Part shown: one piece after another, positions 10,413 through 51,537 of the stretch
Layout: each line of letters opens with the position of its first letter
Position numbering within the stretch: position 1 is the first letter of the stretch
Virus record (IMG/VR): IMGVR_UViG_3300010938_000034
Source: an uncultured virus (IMG/VR IMGVR_UViG_3300010938_000034)
Lineage: Duplodnaviria > Heunggongvirae > Uroviricota > Caudoviricetes
Strand: one strand, 5' to 3'
DNA: 64,000 bases
The notes under the pieces: generated by a model
Seen by the model: only the letters and a program-made list of their open reading frames with translations
Databases searched by the model: none
Told to the model about the DNA's origin: nothing
Translations under genes and position numbers: made by a program

Positions 10413-10424
10413 AAGGAGGCCAAT

Positions 10425-10865
10425 ATGCCAGAGAGAGGTATCTTAGACCAATTAGGGGTTAATTTGCCTCCTCCACCTGTAGGTGGAATTGGAGGTCAGG
10501 CAGTAAAACCACCAATGGCTGAAATGAGTAAACCTGCTGAACTTGGAGGTATAGAAGCCCTTGCCGATACAATGGTTACAGGTGCTTTGATGTTACTTAC
10601 TCAAGCGGTTTCTCTTTATGGGACTTCTGAAAAAGGTGATGGAGTAATCAGGGCTATAAGCACTTTGAAAAAGGTTATTCCTACAGAAAAGATGAAAGAA
10701 GCAGAAAGTAACATTATGGCACTTTTATCTTCTATTGGGAAACCAGGGACTATGGCAACTCCAGCACCAGCACCGACTCCAGAGACTTCACCAGCAGTAG
10801 CAGGAGCACCAGCACCGCCTACAGCTGGAGTGACTCCAGAGATACCAGCAGGTAGAACAATTTAA
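10425..10865 (+). CDS. Pro/Ala-rich head-module protein
   Basis: AGGAGG RBS, between portal and scaffold. Confidence 0.7.
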   Translation: MPERGILDQLGVNLPPPPVGGIGGQAVKPPMAEMSKPAELGGIEALADTMVTGALMLLTQAVSLYGTSEKGDGVIRAISTLKKVIPTEKMKEAESNIMALLSSIGKPGTMATPAPAPTPETSPAVAGAPAPPTAGVTPEIPAGRTI

Positions 10866-14365: not shown

Positions 14366-15133
14366 ATGGCATTTGGTAAAGGCTCTTTTCATCCGATGAA
14401 TGATCCCAAAATTCGGGAAATAGTTAGCCAGAAAATAAAAGAAAAATGGCAAGATCCTGAATATAGGGATAAGGTTTGCAAAACTAAAGGACAGGTTATT
14501 AAGGCCTTAAAAAGGAGGTGGAATGATCCTATACAGCGAGAGAAATTTGCAAACAAAATTAAAGAAAAGTGGAGTGATCCCGAATATAAAAAGAAAGTAG
14601 GAGAGAAAATATCAAAAGGTAAAAGTTGGAATTTGTTTACAAAAGAAGAGCTTGAAGACCTTTATTTGAATCAGAAAAAATCATCAGATGAAATTGCAAA
14701 AGAAAGGGGTTGCTCTAAAGGTTCAGTTTTAGATTATCTAAAAAAGTATGGGATAAAACGTAGAACAGTTTATGACTATATCCCAAAATTAAGAAAAGCC
14801 TTTCTTAGAGAAAATAATCCTCTTTGGAAAGATGGAAAGACAAAAGTAGATAAACTTTTAAGAGAATGTGCAAAGTATGAATTTTGGCGTCAATCGGTTT
14901 TTGAAAAAGACAATTTTACTTGTCAGAAGTGTGGACAAAAAGGAGGTGATTTAGTTGCTCATCATAAGAAACCGTTCTCCAAATTGTTAGATGAGGTAAA
15001 AAAGAATTTACCATTGTTTGGTTTGTATGAAGGTGCTCTTATCTATACTCCACTTTGGGATGTAGATAATGGCATAACATTGTGTTTAAAGTGTCATAAA
15101 AAAATTCACAAGATAGGAGGTAAAAAGAAATGA
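14366..15133 (+). CDS. HNH homing endonuclease with NUMOD3-like repeats
   Basis: KEKWQDPEYR repeats, HTH, CQKCG...AHHKK...NGITLCLKCH. Confidence 0.85.
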   Translation: MAFGKGSFHPMNDPKIREIVSQKIKEKWQDPEYRDKVCKTKGQVIKALKRRWNDPIQREKFANKIKEKWSDPEYKKKVGEKISKGKSWNLFTKEELEDLYLNQKKSSDEIAKERGCSKGSVLDYLKKYGIKRRTVYDYIPKLRKAFLRENNPLWKDGKTKVDKLLRECAKYEFWRQSVFEKDNFTCQKCGQKGGDLVAHHKKPFSKLLDEVKKNLPLFGLYEGALIYTPLWDVDNGITLCLKCHKKIHKIGGKKK

Positions 15134-16203
15134 CAGCGCCTTTTATGAATTATTCTACGCCCTATGGAATTTATCCTCCATCTGTAGAGGTAGGGGCAAA
15201 TGACATGCTTAATGCATTGTCAAGAGCAATCCCTTCGTGGGTCGTGGCTCAGAACCTTGGTAAGCTTTCTCCCCTTATGCGTAAACTCCTTACGATTGCA
15301 GAGGTGAAGGCTATGAGTTTCCCATTTATCAGCCAGCCAGTTGCAGGGACTCCTGTAAGTCATGCTCAATATGTAACGTATGATGGAGCATTTAATGTTC
15401 CAACTTCTCTTGATGTGGACTTGACCAAAATGCCTACTTTCTATGCTAACATGATTCTGGATACATTATATGTTACGGATATTGAAGCAAAGGCATTTGA
15501 AGCAGGCAATCCCTACATGCTTTTTAACAACCTTAAAACAAGGGCTTCTCTTGTTTGGATTGGGTTAATGGATACTTTGACCACCAATCTTACTGGAACA
15601 AGAGTGAGTGGAACAGAGGATACTAACAAGTTCTATGGACTCAAAGATGTTGTGGATGATGGAACCACGAATGCCAACTTTGGTAACCTTTCAAGGTCAA
15701 CTTACACTTGGTGGAACTCCAAAGTCTACAATGCAACGAGTTTATGGACTGACTCTCCTTCTGCTTTTGTTTATGTGATGAGGGCCCTTGCTAAATTCCA
15801 AAATGAATGTTCAACAATGGGGATGCCAACTTGTGCTTTTACTTCTCATGGAGTATGGCAAAAAATTGCAGAGTCCTTTACTAACATTGAACGTTACATT
15901 GTGGCTGATACAGGGAAACTTGAAGAAACCAGGCAGTATGAAGTAACAGGATTGATTGTTCAGGGAATTCCTATCTTTCCTGATCCATATCTAACTGAAT
16001 CTACCATTTACTTTTTGAATTTCGATCATTTGAGATTCGACTTTGTGGATGGATATGTTTCAGTTGTAACTCCCTGGTATAATATGACGATTGTAGGGAA
16101 ACTGGCTTATCTGGCACTAATTATTATTGGCGGGCAACTTTGGAGTGATGCTCCAATTGCTTCTTTTAAATTGACCAATATGCCAGCAGTTTCTAATGTC
16201 TAA
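15130..16203 (+). CDS. Major capsid protein (HK97-type, P22-like context)
   Basis: 357 aa; SPLM, GL..VVDDGT...FGNLSRSTYTWW, GIPIFPDPY..IYFLN motifs. Confidence 0.8.
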   Translation: MTAPFMNYSTPYGIYPPSVEVGANDMLNALSRAIPSWVVAQNLGKLSPLMRKLLTIAEVKAMSFPFISQPVAGTPVSHAQYVTYDGAFNVPTSLDVDLTKMPTFYANMILDTLYVTDIEAKAFEAGNPYMLFNNLKTRASLVWIGLMDTLTTNLTGTRVSGTEDTNKFYGLKDVVDDGTTNANFGNLSRSTYTWWNSKVYNATSLWTDSPSAFVYVMRALAKFQNECSTMGMPTCAFTSHGVWQKIAESFTNIERYIVADTGKLEETRQYEVTGLIVQGIPIFPDPYLTESTIYFLNFDHLRFDFVDGYVSVVTPWYNMTIVGKLAYLALIIIGGQLWSDAPIASFKLTNMPAVSNV

Positions 16204-25237: not shown

Positions 25238-25680
25238 TGTTTCGCTTTCAGGAATATATCAATCGAAGAAATATTACTGATGATTTTTTAATTGATAAGA
25301 TAGAACAGTTCTGTTCTTCTTTTAAGTTGAATTTGATTAACGATAGTGCAATTAGAATGATGTTTATTGATATTGGAGTTGAATTTGGAGAAGGATATAT
25401 TTTTAAAGTCCTCAATTATTTGAGTAAAAAGTCAAAAGTTTTTATCAGAGGGAAAGTCCCTACTCCCGATTTTAAAGAAGAATACGCAATACACTATCTT
25501 AATACTAAGAATGTTCACGAACAATTTCTTTTTATTATGAGGGCTTTATTCAATACCATTGAAGCAAGTTCTACAAATTATCAAAAACTAAAGAAAATTG
25601 TTAATTATTTCTTTGAAAAAGCCACTGGTATTACTTATAATTATACTCAAAATGATTCTAAAATAATTAGGTATGTATAA
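25237..25680 (+). CDS. Hypothetical protein
   Basis: Coupled to terL. Confidence 0.65.
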   Translation: MFRFQEYINRRNITDDFLIDKIEQFCSSFKLNLINDSAIRMMFIDIGVEFGEGYIFKVLNYLSKKSKVFIRGKVPTPDFKEEYAIHYLNTKNVHEQFLFIMRALFNTIEASSTNYQKLKKIVNYFFEKATGITYNYTQNDSKIIRYV

Positions 25681-27481
25681 ACTAAAAAATTTCTTAAACT
25701 GGTGTTCTTATTTAAAAATATCATCAAGAGAAAAAGGAGTTACTTCTTTTTCTCCTCATTGTTGGTTTGATAGTCAAAAAATTTTAGTTCGTGAATTCTT
25801 TAGAGAAATAGAAAATGATTCTCCAGTAAGGGATTTTTTAATTTTAAAAGCAAGACAACTTGGAGTAACTACAATTGTTTTTGCCTTTGACCTTTTCTGG
25901 ATAATGCAGAATCCTTCTATCAAACTTGGATTTCTTTGCCACAACTACGAAGTAAGACCTAAATTAAGAGAAAATTTTAGAAGTCTTTATCTTAATTTAC
26001 CTAAAGCCTACAAAATACCTGTTACATTAGATAATCGAGAAATGATGCATTTTGTTAATGGTTCTGAAATTTTTTTCTATCATATTAGTTCTAAAGAAAT
26101 GAGTAGACAGGCAGTTGCAAGGTCTCAGTCTCTTACCTGTATCCATGCTACGGAGGCGGCTTATTACGACGCAAGTGATCCCAATAATGAAGTTTTAAAA
26201 AGTCTTCAAATCTCTCGTGCTAAAAATCATCCTGCAAGACTTACCATTATTGAATCAACTGCAAATGGATTTAATAATTTCTATGACTATTGGGTTAATT
26301 CTAAGAATAATCCTTCCGAAAAGGCAATTTTTATCGGCTGGTGGTCAAGAAATGACTATCGAATTTCTGAAAGCAATCCCTTATTTCAAGAATATTCTTA
26401 TCCTCTTACCAGAGAAGAAAAAAGAGCGGTTAATTCAGTTAAACGGTTGTATGGCCATACAATAGATATGGAGCAGATTGCCTGGTTTCGGAATGAGGTA
26501 GCAACGACTTATCAGGGAGATATTAATTTTGCCCTTCAAGAATTACCTTGGACAGAGGATGATGCCTTTAGGCTTTCGGGATACAAATTTTTTGATAGTC
26601 AAAAACTTACAGAATTTAGAAAAGAAACTGAAAAACAGGATGTATATTATCTTAATATCTATGCTGATATTAATGGAGTTTATTTAAGTGAAGCAAGTAA
26701 ACAAAGACATAATCTTGAAATTTATGAACTTCCTCAAGGTGGAGAATACTATTTTTTAGGGGCTGACCCTTCGTTTGGAAGTTCTCCTGATAGTGATAAT
26801 GCTGTTGTTTCTATATGGAAAGGTTACAATGATAGGATAGAGCAAGTAGCAGAGTATTGTGATAATTCAATAGGGACAATAGAATTTGCAAAATTGCTTG
26901 TCTTTTTTTCGTGTTTTTATAGACCAAGTTATTTAAATTTAGAGGTAACTGGACCAGGAAGGGTTGTAATTAAAGAACTTGATAAAATAAAAAATAATTC
27001 TTTTGATATTGGAGAGGTTCAAATTAATCTTAATAAAGAATTATATGACCTTGAAAGAATAAAGATAAATATAAGGGATATAAGGGAATATATGTATTAT
27101 CGACCAGATTCAATTAGGAGGAGTTTGGCAAGGCATTGGGAAACTAACCAGGGGACAAAAGAGGCTTTGATGAATCAAATGAAAAGTGTTGTAGGATTAG
27201 GGATGTTTATACCTAAATCAAAAAGATTAATAGAAGAAATGAACATTTTTATTAAAGATGGTTCTTATTTGGGTGCTGAATCGGGTAGAAATGATGACCG
27301 AGTTATTGCTTCTGCCCTTGCAATAGAATATTGGCGAACCTATTGGGCTCACAGGCTTGTCAAATATGAAGATGCTAAAAAGATCATTGAAGTTTCGGAA
27401 TCTAGGAAAATACTTGAACAGACAGGCTTAATACAAACTATTCAACCCTTTATTAAACCAAGAGTTCATATACCCGCATGA
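25673..27481 (+). CDS. terL: Terminase large subunit
   Basis: ILKARQLGVTT, IHATEAAY, IIESTANG, FLGADPS..DN, DDRVIA nuclease motifs. Confidence 0.92.
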   Translation: MYKLKNFLNWCSYLKISSREKGVTSFSPHCWFDSQKILVREFFREIENDSPVRDFLILKARQLGVTTIVFAFDLFWIMQNPSIKLGFLCHNYEVRPKLRENFRSLYLNLPKAYKIPVTLDNREMMHFVNGSEIFFYHISSKEMSRQAVARSQSLTCIHATEAAYYDASDPNNEVLKSLQISRAKNHPARLTIIESTANGFNNFYDYWVNSKNNPSEKAIFIGWWSRNDYRISESNPLFQEYSYPLTREEKRAVNSVKRLYGHTIDMEQIAWFRNEVATTYQGDINFALQELPWTEDDAFRLSGYKFFDSQKLTEFRKETEKQDVYYLNIYADINGVYLSEASKQRHNLEIYELPQGGEYYFLGADPSFGSSPDSDNAVVSIWKGYNDRIEQVAEYCDNSIGTIEFAKLLVFFSCFYRPSYLNLEVTGPGRVVIKELDKIKNNSFDIGEVQINLNKELYDLERIKINIRDIREYMYYRPDSIRRSLARHWETNQGTKEALMNQMKSVVGLGMFIPKSKRLIEEMNIFIKDGSYLGAESGRNDDRVIASALAIEYWRTYWAHRLVKYEDAKKIIEVSESRKILEQTGLIQTIQPFIKPRVHIPA

Positions 27482-37689: not shown

Positions 37690-37813
37690 GGGCTTCCGCT
37701 CCTTCTGAGCTTCCGCCCTGGTAGCTTTTCTTAGATTTACCTCTCTATCGTGGAGGCTTCAAGGGCTTAGCTACCGAACCCCTACGAGCAGGTTTCAGGT
37801 TTTCTGCCAACCT
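37690..37813 (-). repeat. Structured direct repeat, copy 2 (5' leader of the sigma54 transcript)
   Basis: Matches 1-126; lies between the sigma54 promoter and the RBS of 37153-37674. Confidence 0.9.
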
Positions 37814-37834
37814 TCAAATTTTTACTTATTTAAA

Positions 37835-37851
37835 AGCAATTCCTGTGCCAA
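37835..37851 (-). promoter_or_regulatory. sigma54 promoter, copy 2
   Basis: Minus strand TTGGCACAGGAATTGCT; ~40 bp of context nearly identical to copy 1. Confidence 0.8.
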
Positions 37852-45882: not shown

Positions 45883-46434
45883 ATGGCAAAGATAAGAAAA
45901 CCTAAAAAAATAGTCGCAAAGAAATATGGAAAGTTTATTCATGAAATAATTACTCCAAGGGAAGAAATTCCTGAAAAAGCAAAATTCAGAACTATTAAAA
46001 TGGATGCCCATAGAGTTTCAATCGCATATTGGGGAAAACCAGTAGCAGGGAAACATCCATTTTATGTGCTACATAAAATTCTCCACCCTAAGAAAAAAGG
46101 AGAACCTTGTAAATTAAAAGATAGATTGAAATTAATGGGAATTAAAGAGCTTGTTTTAGGAAGAGAATATGAAGTTGTAAGCAAATTACCAAAATTAACT
46201 GGCAAAAGAAGAGCAGGGAAATTGATTACCGAAAATCCTAAACCAGTTAAAATTTATGATAAAATTTTAGCAATTGAGGCACAAAAAGGAGATAGCTCTT
46301 TATTTCCTAAACAATATTTCAGGCATGATTTTAAAAAAGATAAAACACATGCTGAAATTTGGGGATTACCAGATGGGTCACTATTAATTAAATCGAAAAA
46401 AAGGAAAAAATTGTGGAAAAACTTTAATTATTAA
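45883..46434 (+). CDS. Basic protein, possible nucleoprotein
   Basis: K/R-rich; ENP and YFRHDF motifs. Confidence 0.7.
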   Translation: MAKIRKPKKIVAKKYGKFIHEIITPREEIPEKAKFRTIKMDAHRVSIAYWGKPVAGKHPFYVLHKILHPKKKGEPCKLKDRLKLMGIKELVLGREYEVVSKLPKLTGKRRAGKLITENPKPVKIYDKILAIEAQKGDSSLFPKQYFRHDFKKDKTHAEIWGLPDGSLLIKSKKRKKLWKNFNY

Positions 46435-47086: not shown

Positions 47087-48001
47087 ATGGCAACTGAGGC
47101 TTTTTTAATTAATCCATATAAAATAAGAAGGCGAAGGCGGAGAATTGTTTTAGATAACCCTAAAGGTCTTCCTCCAGCTTTACTCTCAAGAATGATGAAA
47201 ACTTATGGTAGAAGTCGTGGAATGAGAGAAGCTTGGAGACTTTACAGAATGGGAATTACAAAGAATGAACCAGAATTAAATCCTTGGGAGACTTTAACTA
47301 TTCCAGAAAGGTCTTTCAGGATTTGGAGAGATTCAAGAACTGGTAGATTTGCAATTCCCCCAAGAAGAAAAAATTTAGGAGAGGAGGTGATGTTAATGAA
47401 TCCAAGAAGAAGACGAAGACGCAGAGCCAGATATATTCTTGATAATGCATGGTTTGGAGACCCTGCTGGGCATAGAGCCGCAGCATTAAAAGGTTGGAGA
47501 ACAAGGAGAATGAAACGTAATCCTTTTGGAGAAGAAGTGATGATTGTTGGGAATCCAAGAAGAAGAAGGAGAAGAATTAGAAGAAGGTTATTCAGAGATA
47601 ATCCAAGAAGAGCAAAAGCAACAGCTTTACCTGCAATTTCTGTATCTAAACCAGCTTCTCTTTTAATGCCAGCTTTAGTTGGAACTGCTGCTTACATTGC
47701 AACAGAAAAAGTTCCATCAATGGTAAATGTTACTTCTAATCTTCCAAGATTAGGAGTCAAAGCAGCAGTTGGCTTTGCTGGTAGTATTCTTTTATCAAGA
47801 GTTGCTAGTGGAAGAACTGCTGCTGTTTGGGCTATAGGCTCTTCAATTAATCTGGTATCAGATATTTTGAGAACCTATATTTTTAAAGGAACTGCATTAG
47901 CTGGTTTAGGTGCTTTTCCTCGTAGAGGGGTAACATACCATGCTGGTTCTCCTTTAGGAGCTTATCCTTCTGAATACCAGTTTTCAAATTATCCAATGTG
48001 A
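47087..48001 (+). CDS. Arg-rich NP-repeat protein with C-terminal membrane domain (putative core/membrane protein)
   Basis: NP followed by poly-Arg three times; hydrophobic helices; LAGLGA near the end; directly upstream of the capsid gene. Confidence 0.75.
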   Translation: MATEAFLINPYKIRRRRRRIVLDNPKGLPPALLSRMMKTYGRSRGMREAWRLYRMGITKNEPELNPWETLTIPERSFRIWRDSRTGRFAIPPRRKNLGEEVMLMNPRRRRRRRARYILDNAWFGDPAGHRAAALKGWRTRRMKRNPFGEEVMIVGNPRRRRRRIRRRLFRDNPRRAKATALPAISVSKPASLLMPALVGTAAYIATEKVPSMVNVTSNLPRLGVKAAVGFAGSILLSRVASGRTAAVWAIGSSINLVSDILRTYIFKGTALAGLGAFPRRGVTYHAGSPLGAYPSEYQFSNYPM

Positions 48002-48102
48002 TAATCCTACCTTAAGCTCTTTGTAGCATTTTTTTTCGTAGCCTTTGTGCTTACAAAATAGTGTTTCCATAGTGAGCAAAGATTGAAAGGAGGTGAAATG
48101 TT

Positions 48103-49875
48103 ATGCCTTTTGGACAAGCTATTCCAGCAACCCCTGCTGACCCATTACAGGCTCAGGGATTTAGAACGCAGCGTGCGGAACTTCCAGAGGATTTGTGGCA
48201 ACCTTTGTATGACCGTAAACTTTATGCGGTCAATAAATTCCATGAAGTCGGAGAAAATCCAGAACGGATAACTCCGAGCCGAGCCTAAAAGGCAGGTGTA
48301 GAGACTAAAGTATGAAGGAACTTTCTCCAAAAAGAAGATCAAAAAAAATACTTTTAGGAACTTTAATGGGAGACTCTTCTTTATTTGAAACTTCCCATAA
48401 GAAAGCTATGTTTAAAACTACGCATGGAGCAGACCAGATCCACTATCTTATGTATAAATTGAATGCTCTCTATCCACTTCTGGGAAGTTTTAGAGTTTCC
48501 TTTACAGGTGGAGGAAGTTTTGAGAGATGGAATGCAAAGAAAAGGATAACCGCTTGGTCGTTAAGCTCTACCTATCTTAAACATATCTACGATGATTTCT
48601 ATTCCAATAAAATTAAGAAGGTAAGGCTTAACGTTTTAAGAAGAATGGATGAGTCTTCTTTGGCTTTCTGGTATATGGATGATGGTTGTTTAGCAAAATC
48701 AAATGGAAAGTTTTATGGAATCCATTTAAATACTCAAGGATTCGATCTTGAGGATCAAGAAACCATCATCAAATATTTTAGCGAAACATGGAAGATAAAA
48801 TTTCATATTACTGAAGAAAGAAAAAATAATAAAACCTATTACTACTTGAGAGCGAACAAGGAAGATTCAGAAAGATTTTTAAATCTAATTAATCCTTTTA
48901 TTTGCAGTTCCATGCTCTATAAAGTAGATCCTTCATACGAAAGAATGGAACATTCCGATAGGGATGAAGATATAGTCCGAACCTTGCAGGAATGCAAGGA
49001 GATTATCAGAAATGATAATCCTTCGGAAGATTCTAAGATTGAACTAAATGGAGAAATTTTAGAGGATATATCCAAAAAAATTGAGACCAAAGGCTATTTT
49101 GTTAAAGTGAATCACTGGAGGCAGAAAACTCCAATCATTTTTTTTAGAGTAAGTGGGGACTATGATTCATTAGAAAAAATTAAAATGGTCTTTGGTGGAT
49201 GCATTTACTTTAGTAGAGTTTGGATATATCAAGCTACAATAAATAGTTTCAAAGAAAAAATATTCCCAAAAATTTCTCCATTCCTGAAAACAAATAAATT
49301 TAAGAATCTTCCGATGTAACATATTGGTAAATTACCCCAATGCTGGGACTACGCAGCTGTCGTTTTTCTCAACTCCTATGGGTCAGTCGGCAACATTAAT
49401 TACAGGTGTGGGTGCGGCAGCAACAAAAGTTAAGGATTATAGGGATACCAATATGCAGAATGCTAATGTTGTTCCTACAAAACTTTTTAAATTTGTGGGA
49501 ATCAGCATTGCATTCATTAATCAGATGCCAGGAGATCCAAACAATGCTGCCGATAGAGATAGGGTAAGGAACAATGCCTATCTTAGATTCAGGATTGTAG
49601 ACAAGGATATTCTTTATATTCCTTTAGTCTGCATTCCCGAAGTGAATCCATTAGTTGTTGGTTCAACAACTGTTACAGCAACAACCATTTTGGGTTCTGC
49701 TGGTGGAGGTGGGCAGAATGTTCCAATGTATAAGCTACCTATCCCTGTAACTTTGAATCCTTACGAGAACTTTAGTGTAGATATTGTGCTGTCTGCTGCT
49801 GTTGCTCTTGCAAGCAGTTCTTATAGCATGGATATCTACATGATACTCCAAGGATTCATGAGAAGGCCAACTTAA
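48103..49875 (+). CDS. Putative jelly-roll capsid protein, spliced: join(48103..48216,49327..49875), 220 aa
   Basis: AGGAGGTG RBS; exons join in frame as ...WQPLYDR|VNYPNAGTTQLSFF...DTNM; beta-strand pattern. The jelly-roll fold is inferred. Confidence 0.7.
48217..49326 (+). mobile_element. Group I self-splicing intron (IA-like, with P7.1)
   Basis: P1 GACCGU/GCGGUC with U.G; P10 UUUAU/GUAAA; P3 UUCCAU/AUGGAA; P7 GACUA/UAGUC within AAGAUAUAGUCC; P8, P9 GGAA loop; terminal G49326. Confidence 0.9.
48312..49319 (+). CDS. Intron-encoded LAGLIDADG homing endonuclease
   Basis: LLGTLMGDSSL and LAFWYMDDG motifs. Confidence 0.9.
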   Translation: MKELSPKRRSKKILLGTLMGDSSLFETSHKKAMFKTTHGADQIHYLMYKLNALYPLLGSFRVSFTGGGSFERWNAKKRITAWSLSSTYLKHIYDDFYSNKIKKVRLNVLRRMDESSLAFWYMDDGCLAKSNGKFYGIHLNTQGFDLEDQETIIKYFSETWKIKFHITEERKNNKTYYYLRANKEDSERFLNLINPFICSSMLYKVDPSYERMEHSDRDEDIVRTLQECKEIIRNDNPSEDSKIELNGEILEDISKKIETKGYFVKVNHWRQKTPIIFFRVSGDYDSLEKIKMVFGGCIYFSRVWIYQATINSFKEKIFPKISPFLKTNKFKNLPM

Positions 49876-49936: not shown

Positions 49937-50734
49937 ATGGATATACCAAAAGAGGATTTAGCTTATATGGCAGGGTTTTTTGATGGTGAGGGATACATCT
50001 CCTTTTTTAAAGTAAGAGGAGAGGATTCAGTTGAATCTGGAATAACCCAAACTATTATGGAACCTTTGCTGTTATTTGCTAAATACTTCGATGGTAATAT
50101 CCATAAAGGGAGAGTAACCCGAGGGGGACTCCAGATATATAGGTTTAGAACCTCAAGTAAAGAGAATATTGGAGTCCTCCTTTCTTCCCTATTTCCTTAT
50201 TTGATAGTTAAGAAATCGAAGGCTATGCTTGCGTTGAAATTTATTGGGAATGAGATACCTCAGGAGAGTGCGGATGAGAAGTTTCTTATTCCTTATATGG
50301 CTGGATTTTTTGATGCAGAAGGTTCGATATCAGTAAGAGTTCGGAAAGAGGGCAAAAAAGTTAAAGTTTATGGTAATAAACTTCAACCATTAATTGTTAT
50401 GCAACAGACCTGTATCGAACCGCTTCTTTTATTTAAAAAAACTTTTGATGGATATTTATATGAAAAAGGTTCAAAAACTCAAAAAGGTTCACCTATATTT
50501 TATTACAGACTTAACCTTTCGCAGATTCCCAGATTCTTTGAACTCCTTGGAAAGTATCTGATTGTTAAGCGTCAGCATGCAGAATTGGTTTTTAGACTTC
50601 AGCAGATAAAGTTGAAGCATAATGGTAAAGATCCAAAGATTCATGAGAAATGGGATATTGCGAAACAGATTATAGATTTGAATTCTAAGAAAGGGAATAA
50701 AGAGAATTGTAAAATTCTTCAACTTATTAATTAA
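49937..50734 (+). CDS. Free-standing two-motif LAGLIDADG endonuclease
   Basis: YMAGFFDGEG and YMAGFFDAEG; own GGAGG RBS. Confidence 0.9.
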   Translation: MDIPKEDLAYMAGFFDGEGYISFFKVRGEDSVESGITQTIMEPLLLFAKYFDGNIHKGRVTRGGLQIYRFRTSSKENIGVLLSSLFPYLIVKKSKAMLALKFIGNEIPQESADEKFLIPYMAGFFDAEGSISVRVRKEGKKVKVYGNKLQPLIVMQQTCIEPLLLFKKTFDGYLYEKGSKTQKGSPIFYYRLNLSQIPRFFELLGKYLIVKRQHAELVFRLQQIKLKHNGKDPKIHEKWDIAKQIIDLNSKKGNKENCKILQLIN

Positions 50735-50760: not shown

Positions 50761-51537
50761 ATGGCATGGAGAGAATATTTTATATATGGAATTAATTTTA
50801 GTAGTATAACTGCAGGTGATGGAACATTATTTACAAGAGATATTATTAGGATGGATAGTGATTCTGATTTTGAACTTCAAAAAATAGTAGCTATAGCAAC
50901 AAGTAGAAACTTAAGGATAAGAATTATTGATGATTCAACTGGAAGGTTTTTAATAAAACAATCAGCAAGTTTGAGGGATATGGCAGGAGGTAGTATTTTA
51001 ACACCTTTTATATTACCAAGACCTTTTCAGATTCTAGCAGGCTCAACATTAACAATTGAAGTTGCAGATTCTTCTGGAAAAAGTAATTCTTTAAGGCTTT
51101 ATTTTCATGGTGCAAAAATAAGACCAGGAGACCCGCCTTGGGGAGTTTATGATAATGTTACTAAAAGAATAGTTATGAAAAAGTATAAAGCTGTTTTACC
51201 ATTTATTTACAATACGGGAGTCCAAACAGTTTCAGGAAGCTTATCCACTTATACAAGAATTGAAGTTGATAATGATGCACATTTTTTAATTCAAAAAATA
51301 ACAGGATTTTCATCTCAGGCTATTTTACTTGATTTCAAAGATATGCCTAGAGATATTAGCTGGCAGAATATAGCTATCCATCACGAAGCAATTTTAGGTA
51401 GCGGAGACTTTCCTAATATTTTATTTGCTAACAGATTTATACCAAGAGGTTCGGTTATATCTATAAATGTCCAGAACTTATCTTCAAGTCAAGCTACCTT
51501 TGAAATAAATCTTATAGGAGTGAAATTATATGAATAA
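50761..51537 (+). CDS. Tandem two-domain beta-sandwich protein, putative second/double jelly-roll capsid protein
   Basis: Internal duplication: FIY..DSDSDFELQKI..PFILP..GSTLTI..GAKI / FIY..DNDAHFLIQKI..PNILF..GSVISI..GVKL. Confidence 0.6.
   Translation: MAWREYFIYGINFSSITAGDGTLFTRDIIRMDSDSDFELQKIVAIATSRNLRIRIIDDSTGRFLIKQSASLRDMAGGSILTPFILPRPFQILAGSTLTIEVADSSGKSNSLRLYFHGAKIRPGDPPWGVYDNVTKRIVMKKYKAVLPFIYNTGVQTVSGSLSTYTRIEVDNDAHFLIQKITGFSSQAILLDFKDMPRDISWQNIAIHHEAILGSGDFPNILFANRFIPRGSVISINVQNLSSSQATFEINLIGVKLYE

Follow-up and report, generated by a model that had tools for sequence, protein, structure and literature searches.

The window, by which we mean the whole 64 000-nucleotide stretch of DNA analysed (IMG/VR record IMGVR_UViG_3300010938_000034, from an uncultured virus), carries on its plus strand a capsid-like gene that is split by a group I intron. 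Exon 1 (48103–48216) comprises 38 codons, its last base being the U of the Arg38 codon, and starts 7 nt downstream of a Shine–Dalgarno-like sequence, AGGAGGUG (48088–48095). The intron (48217–49326) is 1110 nt long, is inserted in phase 0, ends in the ω-G and contains no P2 helix. Exon 2 (49327–49875) contributes 182 codons and the stop and encodes most of a single jelly roll. Excision of the intron gives a 663-nt reading frame for 220 residues plus stop, as the initial annotation, made from the sequence alone, had proposed; homologues and intron-less alleles agree with this in-frame product. Left unspliced, the exon 1 frame meets a stop at 48286–48288 and yields a 61-residue stub only.

A query with exon 2 returned 285 homologues. 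Alignment of the spliced protein to uninterrupted homologues, which had been suggested as a check, came out in its favour: 106 of the 120 homologues listed align across both exons and span the junction, the best with 93% identity across all 220 residues, and the exact junction peptide YDRVNY is present in 49 of those listed. When the family profile was used to score 64 U|G pairs that lie close to the ends and keep the frame, 48216/49326 ranked top (378 versus 371 bits) and the other pairs, with lower scores, were rejected. Two called proteins, P0020 and P0055, start exactly at Val39, which suggests that more distant relatives may carry introns at the window's own site.

The intron is also seen as an allele. 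In the public hot-spring runs X2 and X3, DNA contigs omit exactly 1110 bases and are joined at 48216|49327; the join is unambiguous, and 84 letters align on its shorter flank. Contigs that carry the intron and continue into the exon came from run X4 and from run X1, where part of the intron exists in two variants. Because both kinds of allele occur, the insert is real and polymorphic; being DNA, the contigs of the four runs fix its ends and its presence or absence among close relatives, not its splicing. Among the public runs listed as holders of the sequence, none was of RNA. In X1 and X4 exon 1 is further interrupted, between 48185 and 48197, by an insert of roughly 725 nt that is probably another intron.

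Ribozyme core

The internal guide sequence (48221–48232, plus strand, as are all elements of the intron) pairs with both exons. Residues 48226–48232 form the 7-bp P1 with the exon strand 48210–48216 (computed pair probability 0.8–1.0), in which the exon end GACCGU (48211–48216) faces GCGGUC (48226–48231) and U48216·G48226 is the U·G pair, and UUUAU (48221–48225) pairs with GUAAA of exon 2 (49327–49331) to form P10. The 5′ half of the core (48238–48307) contains the 5′ strand of P3 (48238–48243), P4 (48248–48253/48272–48277), P5 (48257–48260/48266–48269) and, from 48278 to 48307, P6 (48278–48280/48295–48297), P6a (48283–48286/48290–48293) and the 5′ strand of P7 (48301–48307), with A48302 bulged and G48303 in the G-binding pair. 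The 3′ half (48945–49019) contains the 3′ strand of P3 (48945–48950), P8 (48951–48966), J8/7, the 3′ strand of P7 (48973–48978) and, from 48982 to 49019, P9 (48982–48999, with a GGAA cap) and P9.1 (49002–49019). The segment AAGAUAUAGUCC (48967–48978), which includes the 3′ strand of P7, occurs once in the window and matches the RF00028 consensus. The arms of P1, P10, P3, P4, P5, P6, P6a, P7, P8, P9 and P9.1 are all complementary. Both guide pairings, P3 (48238/48945), P7 (48303/48973), P8, the GGAA-capped P9 and the terminal G49326 had been recognized in the initial annotation and are all present; P4–P6, the LAGLIDADG reading frame and the stems that loop out both insertions are additions to it.

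Without its two insertions the ribozyme is about 230 nt long. In partition-function calculations P4 forms in the core-only fold and P9.2 in the P9.2-only fold; the pair probability of P7 reaches no more than 0.2, since a pseudoknot such as P3/P7 is beyond what the program can fold. The Infernal search that had been proposed gave a divided answer. Rfam RF00028, run on the window in gathering and E-value modes, returned chance matches only and no group I match, which would be because of the roughly 600-nt (610) insertion in the middle of the core: kindred introns whose core is uninterrupted score above the RF00028 cut-off (L055, 56.6 bits; second intron of L099, 86.8 bits). A covariance model of the 5′ core half (R1), built from the capsid introns of nine relatives with the window left out of training, gave one strong match in the 64 kb (48233–48310, 61.4 bits, E ~2e-15), the next scoring 15 bits.

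In the introns of these nine relatives 12 of the 18 P4–P6a pairs vary on both sides, a count equalled by none of 500 shuffles, although it includes near-duplicates (L079, L081) and is inflated by relatedness, as related sequences can beat shuffles without structure. A compensatory change in P5, U–A to C–G at 48258/48268, is seen in the run X1 allele, and P8 changes from G·U to A–U in the intron-plus contigs of X1 and X4. The window's intron has P7.1 and a short P5, and several kindred introns have no P7.1 (L055, L079). Introns of subgroup IA have P7.1 between P7 and P3 and no P5abc. The proposal of a group I intron with exact ends is thus upheld, on the basis of the homologues, the intron-less DNA alleles and the covariance model, and by its group I features the window's intron would be expected to self-splice. 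A guanosine bound in P7 would attack after U48216 in P1; P10 would then align the second step, in which exon 1 attacks after G49326 and is ligated to exon 2.

Intron-encoded protein and proposed intron mobility

The two insertions are each closed by a stem. P7.1 (48310–48938) is a 10-bp stem (48310–48319/48929–48938) that closes a structured 610-nt loop, and P9.2 (49023–49314; stem 49023–49040/49297–49314) closes a 256-nt rod-like loop that codes for the third domain of the intron protein. Both loops are more stable than all of their shuffles (P7.1, z −6.4, 20 shuffles; P9.2, z −5.4, 100 shuffles). The stability of the P9.2 duplex was equalled by 0 of 3693 control duplexes and the energy of the P7.1 duplex in 11 of 3700 control windows.

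The intron reading frame (48312–49319) encodes 335 residues, starts at AUG 48312 inside the P7.1 stem and stops 7 nt upstream of the ω-G. Residues 12–189 are a LAGLIDADG_2 domain (Pfam PF03161; E 4e-28, 99 bits against a cut-off of 25). The linker that follows is encoded by the ribozyme core, the frame crossing P3, P8, P7, P9 and P9.1. The third domain (about residues 239–335) has a predicted LAGLIDADG fold, with a TM score of 0.73 to the LAGLIDADG_1 cluster of the structure atlas; its sequence-profile match is weak, ranking third of 1001 against shuffles. A P7.1-like stem lies at the start region of the nuclease in all five complete P7.1-type introns tested, the AUG of L048 being just outside it, and in four complete P7.1-type relatives the frame likewise reads into or through the core. 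L055, L079 and L085 have a single-motif LAGLIDADG gene in P9. In L079 (5404–6054) the unspliced exon 1 frame is open through the whole intron (245 residues), so that exon 1 is fused to the P9 LAGLIDADG. The three-domain protein of the window probably arose from a P7.1 nuclease that lost its stop codon and was fused to an older P9 LAGLIDADG gene ('core creep'), which would have become the third domain.

Kindred group I introns occur in the capsid-like gene of 13 of 87 related loci. The set consists of 84 loci, duplicates included, plus three, and disfavours split genes because its metagenome part was taken as the best 80 of 117 matches. After clustering at 95% protein identity an intron is present in nine of 52 clusters (the proteins used were the window's and the 82 that could be recovered out of 84, with L097–L099 left out). 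The gene has nine intron sites, the window's own and eight others in relatives. In window residue numbering they are R21|T22 (L048), D30|L31 (L079, L081), L31 phase 2 (L005), W32 phase 1 (L055, L060, L099), L35 phase 1 (L005, L075, L076, L085), R38|V39 (the window), Y173 phase 1 (L070, L099), Y184 phase 1 (L083) and R217|R218 (L024). Intron ends in L005, L048, L055, L070, L075 and L079 were taken from a family-profile scan and those in L024, L083, L085 and L099 were read from the sequence, L083 and L085 being cut by contig ends; the second intron of L099 spans 10422–10638. The nine site codons are all at least 94% conserved; of 217 columns, 81 reach or exceed 90%, and the nominal chance of 1e-4 is overstated because six of the nine sites cluster. 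Most introns of the family end in GUAACA followed by 4–5 nt and G. In L005 (8919–10007) two introns flank an 11-nt middle exon, and the first of them (173 nt) appears truncated after P9.

The introns are concentrated in this gene. In 659 kb of loci, 12 of 13 matches to R1, a model trained on capsid introns, fall in the capsid-like gene; the two downstream neighbour genes are split in 0 of 70 and 0 of 50 loci, and three other neighbour genes show one short gap each. A second, more distant group I-like intron of L024 (1400–1650) interrupts not the capsid gene but a short gene that follows a nuclease-like ORF. L070, with an intron, and L015, with none, have capsid proteins at least 99% identical, and intron presence forces at least eight changes on a quick tree of the capsid proteins; the introns have therefore moved or been lost recently.

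A free-standing two-motif LAGLIDADG gene (49937–50734, plus strand) directly follows the capsid stop, outside any intron. Such a gene occupies the same position in eight related loci (L006, L008, L009, L011, L013, L024, L027 and L097) and is a candidate for intronless or collaborative homing.

We are highly confident that the best explanation as a whole is a group I intron with a LAGLIDADG ORF in a capsid-like gene, capable of splicing and homing. The nuclease frame lies in two loops that the P7.1 and P9.2 stems keep away from the core; with the AUG within the P7.1 stem, the folded, splicing-competent RNA would therefore repress translation of the nuclease. The enzyme would cleave, near Arg38–Val39, the intron-less capsid alleles of relatives infecting the same cell, and repair of the break would copy the intron into the cut allele. 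The patchy distribution of the introns lends only indirect support to homing by the intron ORF.

It is rather unlikely that the intron splices but has lost its own mobility, its ORF being a decaying nuclease or a maturase and its spread depending on the free-standing LAGLIDADG (collaborative or trans homing). Consistent with such a loss, the third domain has no acidic residue in its motif, the first LAGLIDADG motif of the ORF reads GDS, and the same gene harbours introns with no ORF (the first of L005, that of L024 and the second of L099), the one in L024 lying 8 nt upstream of the capsid stop beside a free-standing LAGLIDADG homologue. However, the 335-residue frame is uninterrupted, the two-motif domain retains both of its acidic residues and the Pfam match spans positions 2–168 of 168; moreover, intron-less L006 has the free-standing gene at 93% identity to the window's, yet no intron.

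With the mobile, splicing intron as the preferred reading, a broader picture can be put forward tentatively as a conceivable one. In a widespread and so far undescribed lineage of tailless, single-jelly-roll bacterial viruses, the capsid gene may be a homing battleground in which one intron family occupies at least nine conserved codons and swaps endonucleases between P7.1 and P9, helped by free-standing LAGLIDADG genes just behind the capsid stop; the P7.1 stem may switch between capsid mRNA and a nuclease that destroys the capsid genes of rivals, and the three-domain ORF may have been captured as the fusion product of one invader and its successor and have taken on a new function, as a maturase or in DNA binding.

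Host protein and its virus

The fold was predicted with AlphaFold2 (100 sequences) for P0002, the 93%-identical homologue, rather than for the spliced product. The P0002 model is a β-sandwich with a pLDDT of 84. Its best match among solved structures is SPV1 VP4 (Foldseek E 7e-4, Z 7.9, r.m.s.d. 3.5 over 137 residues); this Z is below the tool's stated bar of 8 and the scores are middling. Capsid chains of SH1, HHIV-2 and HCIV-1 give Z 6.3–6.4, those of P23-77 also match, lower than SPV1 VP4, and the unrelated cellular jelly roll PHM (Z 6.8) falls between SPV1 VP4 and these viral chains. The top BFVD match is an unnamed 211-residue protein, and the nearest named atlas clusters, the PM2 and PRD1 capsid domains, are leads only. 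In SSIP-1 the family profile ranks the 211-residue virion protein gp46 best of 415 frames (E 1.6e-4), and the hhalign alignment to it is weak (35% probability, 34 columns). The profile recruits 447 clusters at 50% identity. Searches of Pfam, PHROGs and PDB sequences returned nothing for the capsid-like protein, and tblastn of 50,697 phage records gave no match. The jelly-roll capsid assignment of the initial annotation is in keeping with the predicted fold, through SPV1 VP4 and the SH1, HHIV-2 and HCIV-1 chains, and with the weak profile match to gp46. On this modelled fold and its matches, the split gene very probably encodes a capsid protein, and is likely to encode the major one, of an uncultured bacterial virus that probably lacks a tail and contains a membrane.

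Related loci preserve a block in the order Arg-rich protein, capsid-like gene, 258-residue two-domain protein, 254-residue protein. The 258-residue neighbour (50761–51537, plus strand) is predicted to have two tandem β-sandwich (jelly-roll-like) domains and on this prediction is likely to be a second virion protein; its profile does not match SSIP-1 gp47. We regard it as unlikely that the split gene, with a real intron, codes for a minor virion protein (a penton or second capsid protein) and that this neighbour or another gene supplies the main capsomer. The tandem domains, the PM2 P2-like size and the presence of the neighbour in 70 loci fit that assignment, as does the occurrence of more than one single-jelly-roll protein in both SPV1 and SSIP-1. 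However, the domains do not superpose on PM2 P2 (TM 0.28) or the STIV MCP (TM 0.25), and a classic double jelly roll is not supported for this protein; the split gene is the more conserved of the two (93% versus 78% identity to L006), has a strong ribosome-binding site and finds its best structural match in the SPV1 hexamer protein, VP4.

If splicing were unneeded, exon 2 would be translated alone from TTG 49324, where an open frame of 183 residues exists, or the gene would be a dead inserted copy. The exon 1 part is indeed absent from 14 of the 120 homologues listed, but several short homologues start at or near mapped intron sites. Exon 1 carries the family's most conserved motif and the beginning of the first strand, the record contains no second copy of the gene, and the intron helices are kept with compensatory change in independent alleles; we judge this explanation very improbable.

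The capsid-like gene, as we read it the likely major capsid gene, lies in a region rich in C-terminally anchored proteins. Lytic transglycosylase, endolysin-like and peptidoglycan-binding genes are also present nearby, and we therefore assign a bacterial host. Upstream lie an Arg-rich protein (47087–48001) with repeated NP-R-R-R-R blocks, kept in 62 loci, and a Lys-rich protein (45883–46434), kept in 53; the two are possible genome-condensing proteins. No Walker A motif was found in the reading frames of the right part of the record (the 38–65 kb region) or in five related loci, all partial. An FtsK/HerA-type packaging ATPase is a feature of Helvetiavirae/Singelaviria. No terminase was found in three related virus records and two MAGs, all incomplete. 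The structural region in the window alone exceeds 26 kb and related records reach 70–77 kb, one with inverted terminal repeats; these sizes and the peptidoglycan-directed enzymes led us to reject Portogloboviridae, which have a circular genome of about 20 kb and a Sulfolobales host. Assignment of the host from MAG labels was also rejected, the labels being discordant (Roseiflexus, Pacearchaeota, Woesearchaeota, Gracilibacteria, Lithacetigena, Syntrophomonadaceae), as expected for binned viral contigs.

The left 37 kb of the record is a tailed-phage genome, with a terminase (25673–27481), an HK97-type head gene (15130–16203) and a replication initiator. It is bounded by an exact 55-bp repeat (1–55 and 37690–37744), beyond which the jelly-roll virus follows on the right; a 22-bp repeat lies at 1032–1053 and 37819–37840, and none of four left-hand tailed-phage-type genes tested occurs in the related loci. 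The record is likely to be two viruses joined, either at assembly, the two having a control element in common, or as a true composite. In the left-hand phage an HNH gene (14366–15133) is flanked by a scaffold-like gene and the HK97-type head gene; neither it nor the LAGLIDADG gene downstream of the capsid gene gave a covariance-model match that would place it inside a group I intron. The intron finding is unaffected. The record looks composite further to the left, but the chance that the intron is an assembly artefact is negligible, given the intron-plus contigs in the independent runs X1 and X4 and the kindred introns in the same gene of 13 other loci.

Relation to known systems

The initial annotation had called an intron in a putative jelly-roll capsid gene unusual. 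This needs qualifying, as introns in major capsid genes have been published for the tailed phages LittleE and Tuc2009 and for the crAss-like Delta and Zeta groups; the novelty lies in the tailless, single-jelly-roll setting and in the number of sites. The intron in the major capsid gene of mycobacteriophage LittleE was found to splice by RT-PCR and is classed there as 'most likely' group I (Pope et al., 2013; PMC3706429), a report that also cites the capsid intron of lactococcal phage Tuc2009. Like the window's, the LittleE intron follows an exon-end U, ends in G, contains a LAGLIDADG-like ORF and is absent from close relatives, but it belongs to a tailed phage and its ORF is on the bottom strand (PMC3706429). 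In the window the host protein is a predicted single jelly roll, the sense strand carries the ORF, which is inserted in P7.1 and traverses the core, and the family as a whole uses nine sites. The crAss-like phages of the Delta and Zeta groups also have group I introns in their major capsid gene, in some genomes more than one per gene (Yutin et al., 2021; PMC7886860); those phages are tailed and carry introns in many core genes, whereas here the introns are concentrated in one.

The IA-type introns described in Bastillevirinae (PMC11878797) share the P1–P10 core and a loop-encoded nuclease that splits the covariance-model match, and PHROG 11023 LAGLIDADG_2 occurs both in one bastillevirus intron of that report and here. 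Overlap of the ORF with core helices resembles 'core creep' (Edgell et al., 2011; PMC3073962). In T4-type phages RNA stems hide nuclease start signals (PMC2988022), and by analogy the P7.1 stem may play the same start-hiding role here. Unlike RF00028 and phage IA introns, the window's intron combines a P7.1 nuclease and the lack of P2 with an ORF that runs via P3, P8, P7, P9 and P9.1 into a second insertion with a third domain. A further difference is the 3′ motif GUAACA-N4/5-G shared within the present family.

Sphaerolipoviridae and P23-77 are placed in Helvetiavirae, realm Singelaviria (PMC12714852). With these, SPV1 (Portogloboviridae; PMC8459092) and SSIP-1 (JN880423) the present virus shares a predicted single jelly roll, many tail-anchored membrane proteins and a transglycosylase. 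In SSIP-1, gp46 is followed by a 256-residue virion protein, as the capsid-like gene here is by the 258-residue one. Identity to proteins of single-jelly-roll tailless viruses is 11–14% only, and the related records here are 70–77 kb. The single-jelly-roll capsid of Helvetiavirae/Singelaviria has its counterpart in a predicted β-sandwich with middling scores (Z 6.3–7.9); those viruses have two paralogous single-jelly-roll MCPs. The present record has one copy and a neighbour with two tandem domains. A search confined to the open-access literature turned up no group I intron in tailless or single-jelly-roll prokaryotic viruses. A group I intron occurs in a chlorovirus capsid gene. Mimivirus and Faustovirus have intron-containing capsid genes, and self-splicing introns are described in several chlorovirus genes (PMC7019647). 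A survey of double-jelly-roll prokaryotic viruses (PMC5894146) does not use the word 'intron'.

The element is, and would be expected to work as, a group I intron that carries a LAGLIDADG gene; new about it are the host lineage, the occupancy of nine sites, the position in P7.1, whose stem contains the start signal, and an ORF of three domains. With it, the range of mobile group I introns comes to include a tailless, single-jelly-roll lineage of prokaryotic viruses. Because the hallmark gene is broken in about one in seven loci (13 of 87), gene callers and capsid-based classifiers miss it; the window's record, for instance, would be classified from the tailed-phage genes in its left part. The family offers a compact natural series, in which introns with no ORF stand beside P9-type, P7.1-type and fused ones and some share a site, and which is useful for testing core creep, collaborative homing and the translational control of homing nucleases by ribozyme helices, and which also bears on nuclease-mediated competition between co-infecting viruses.
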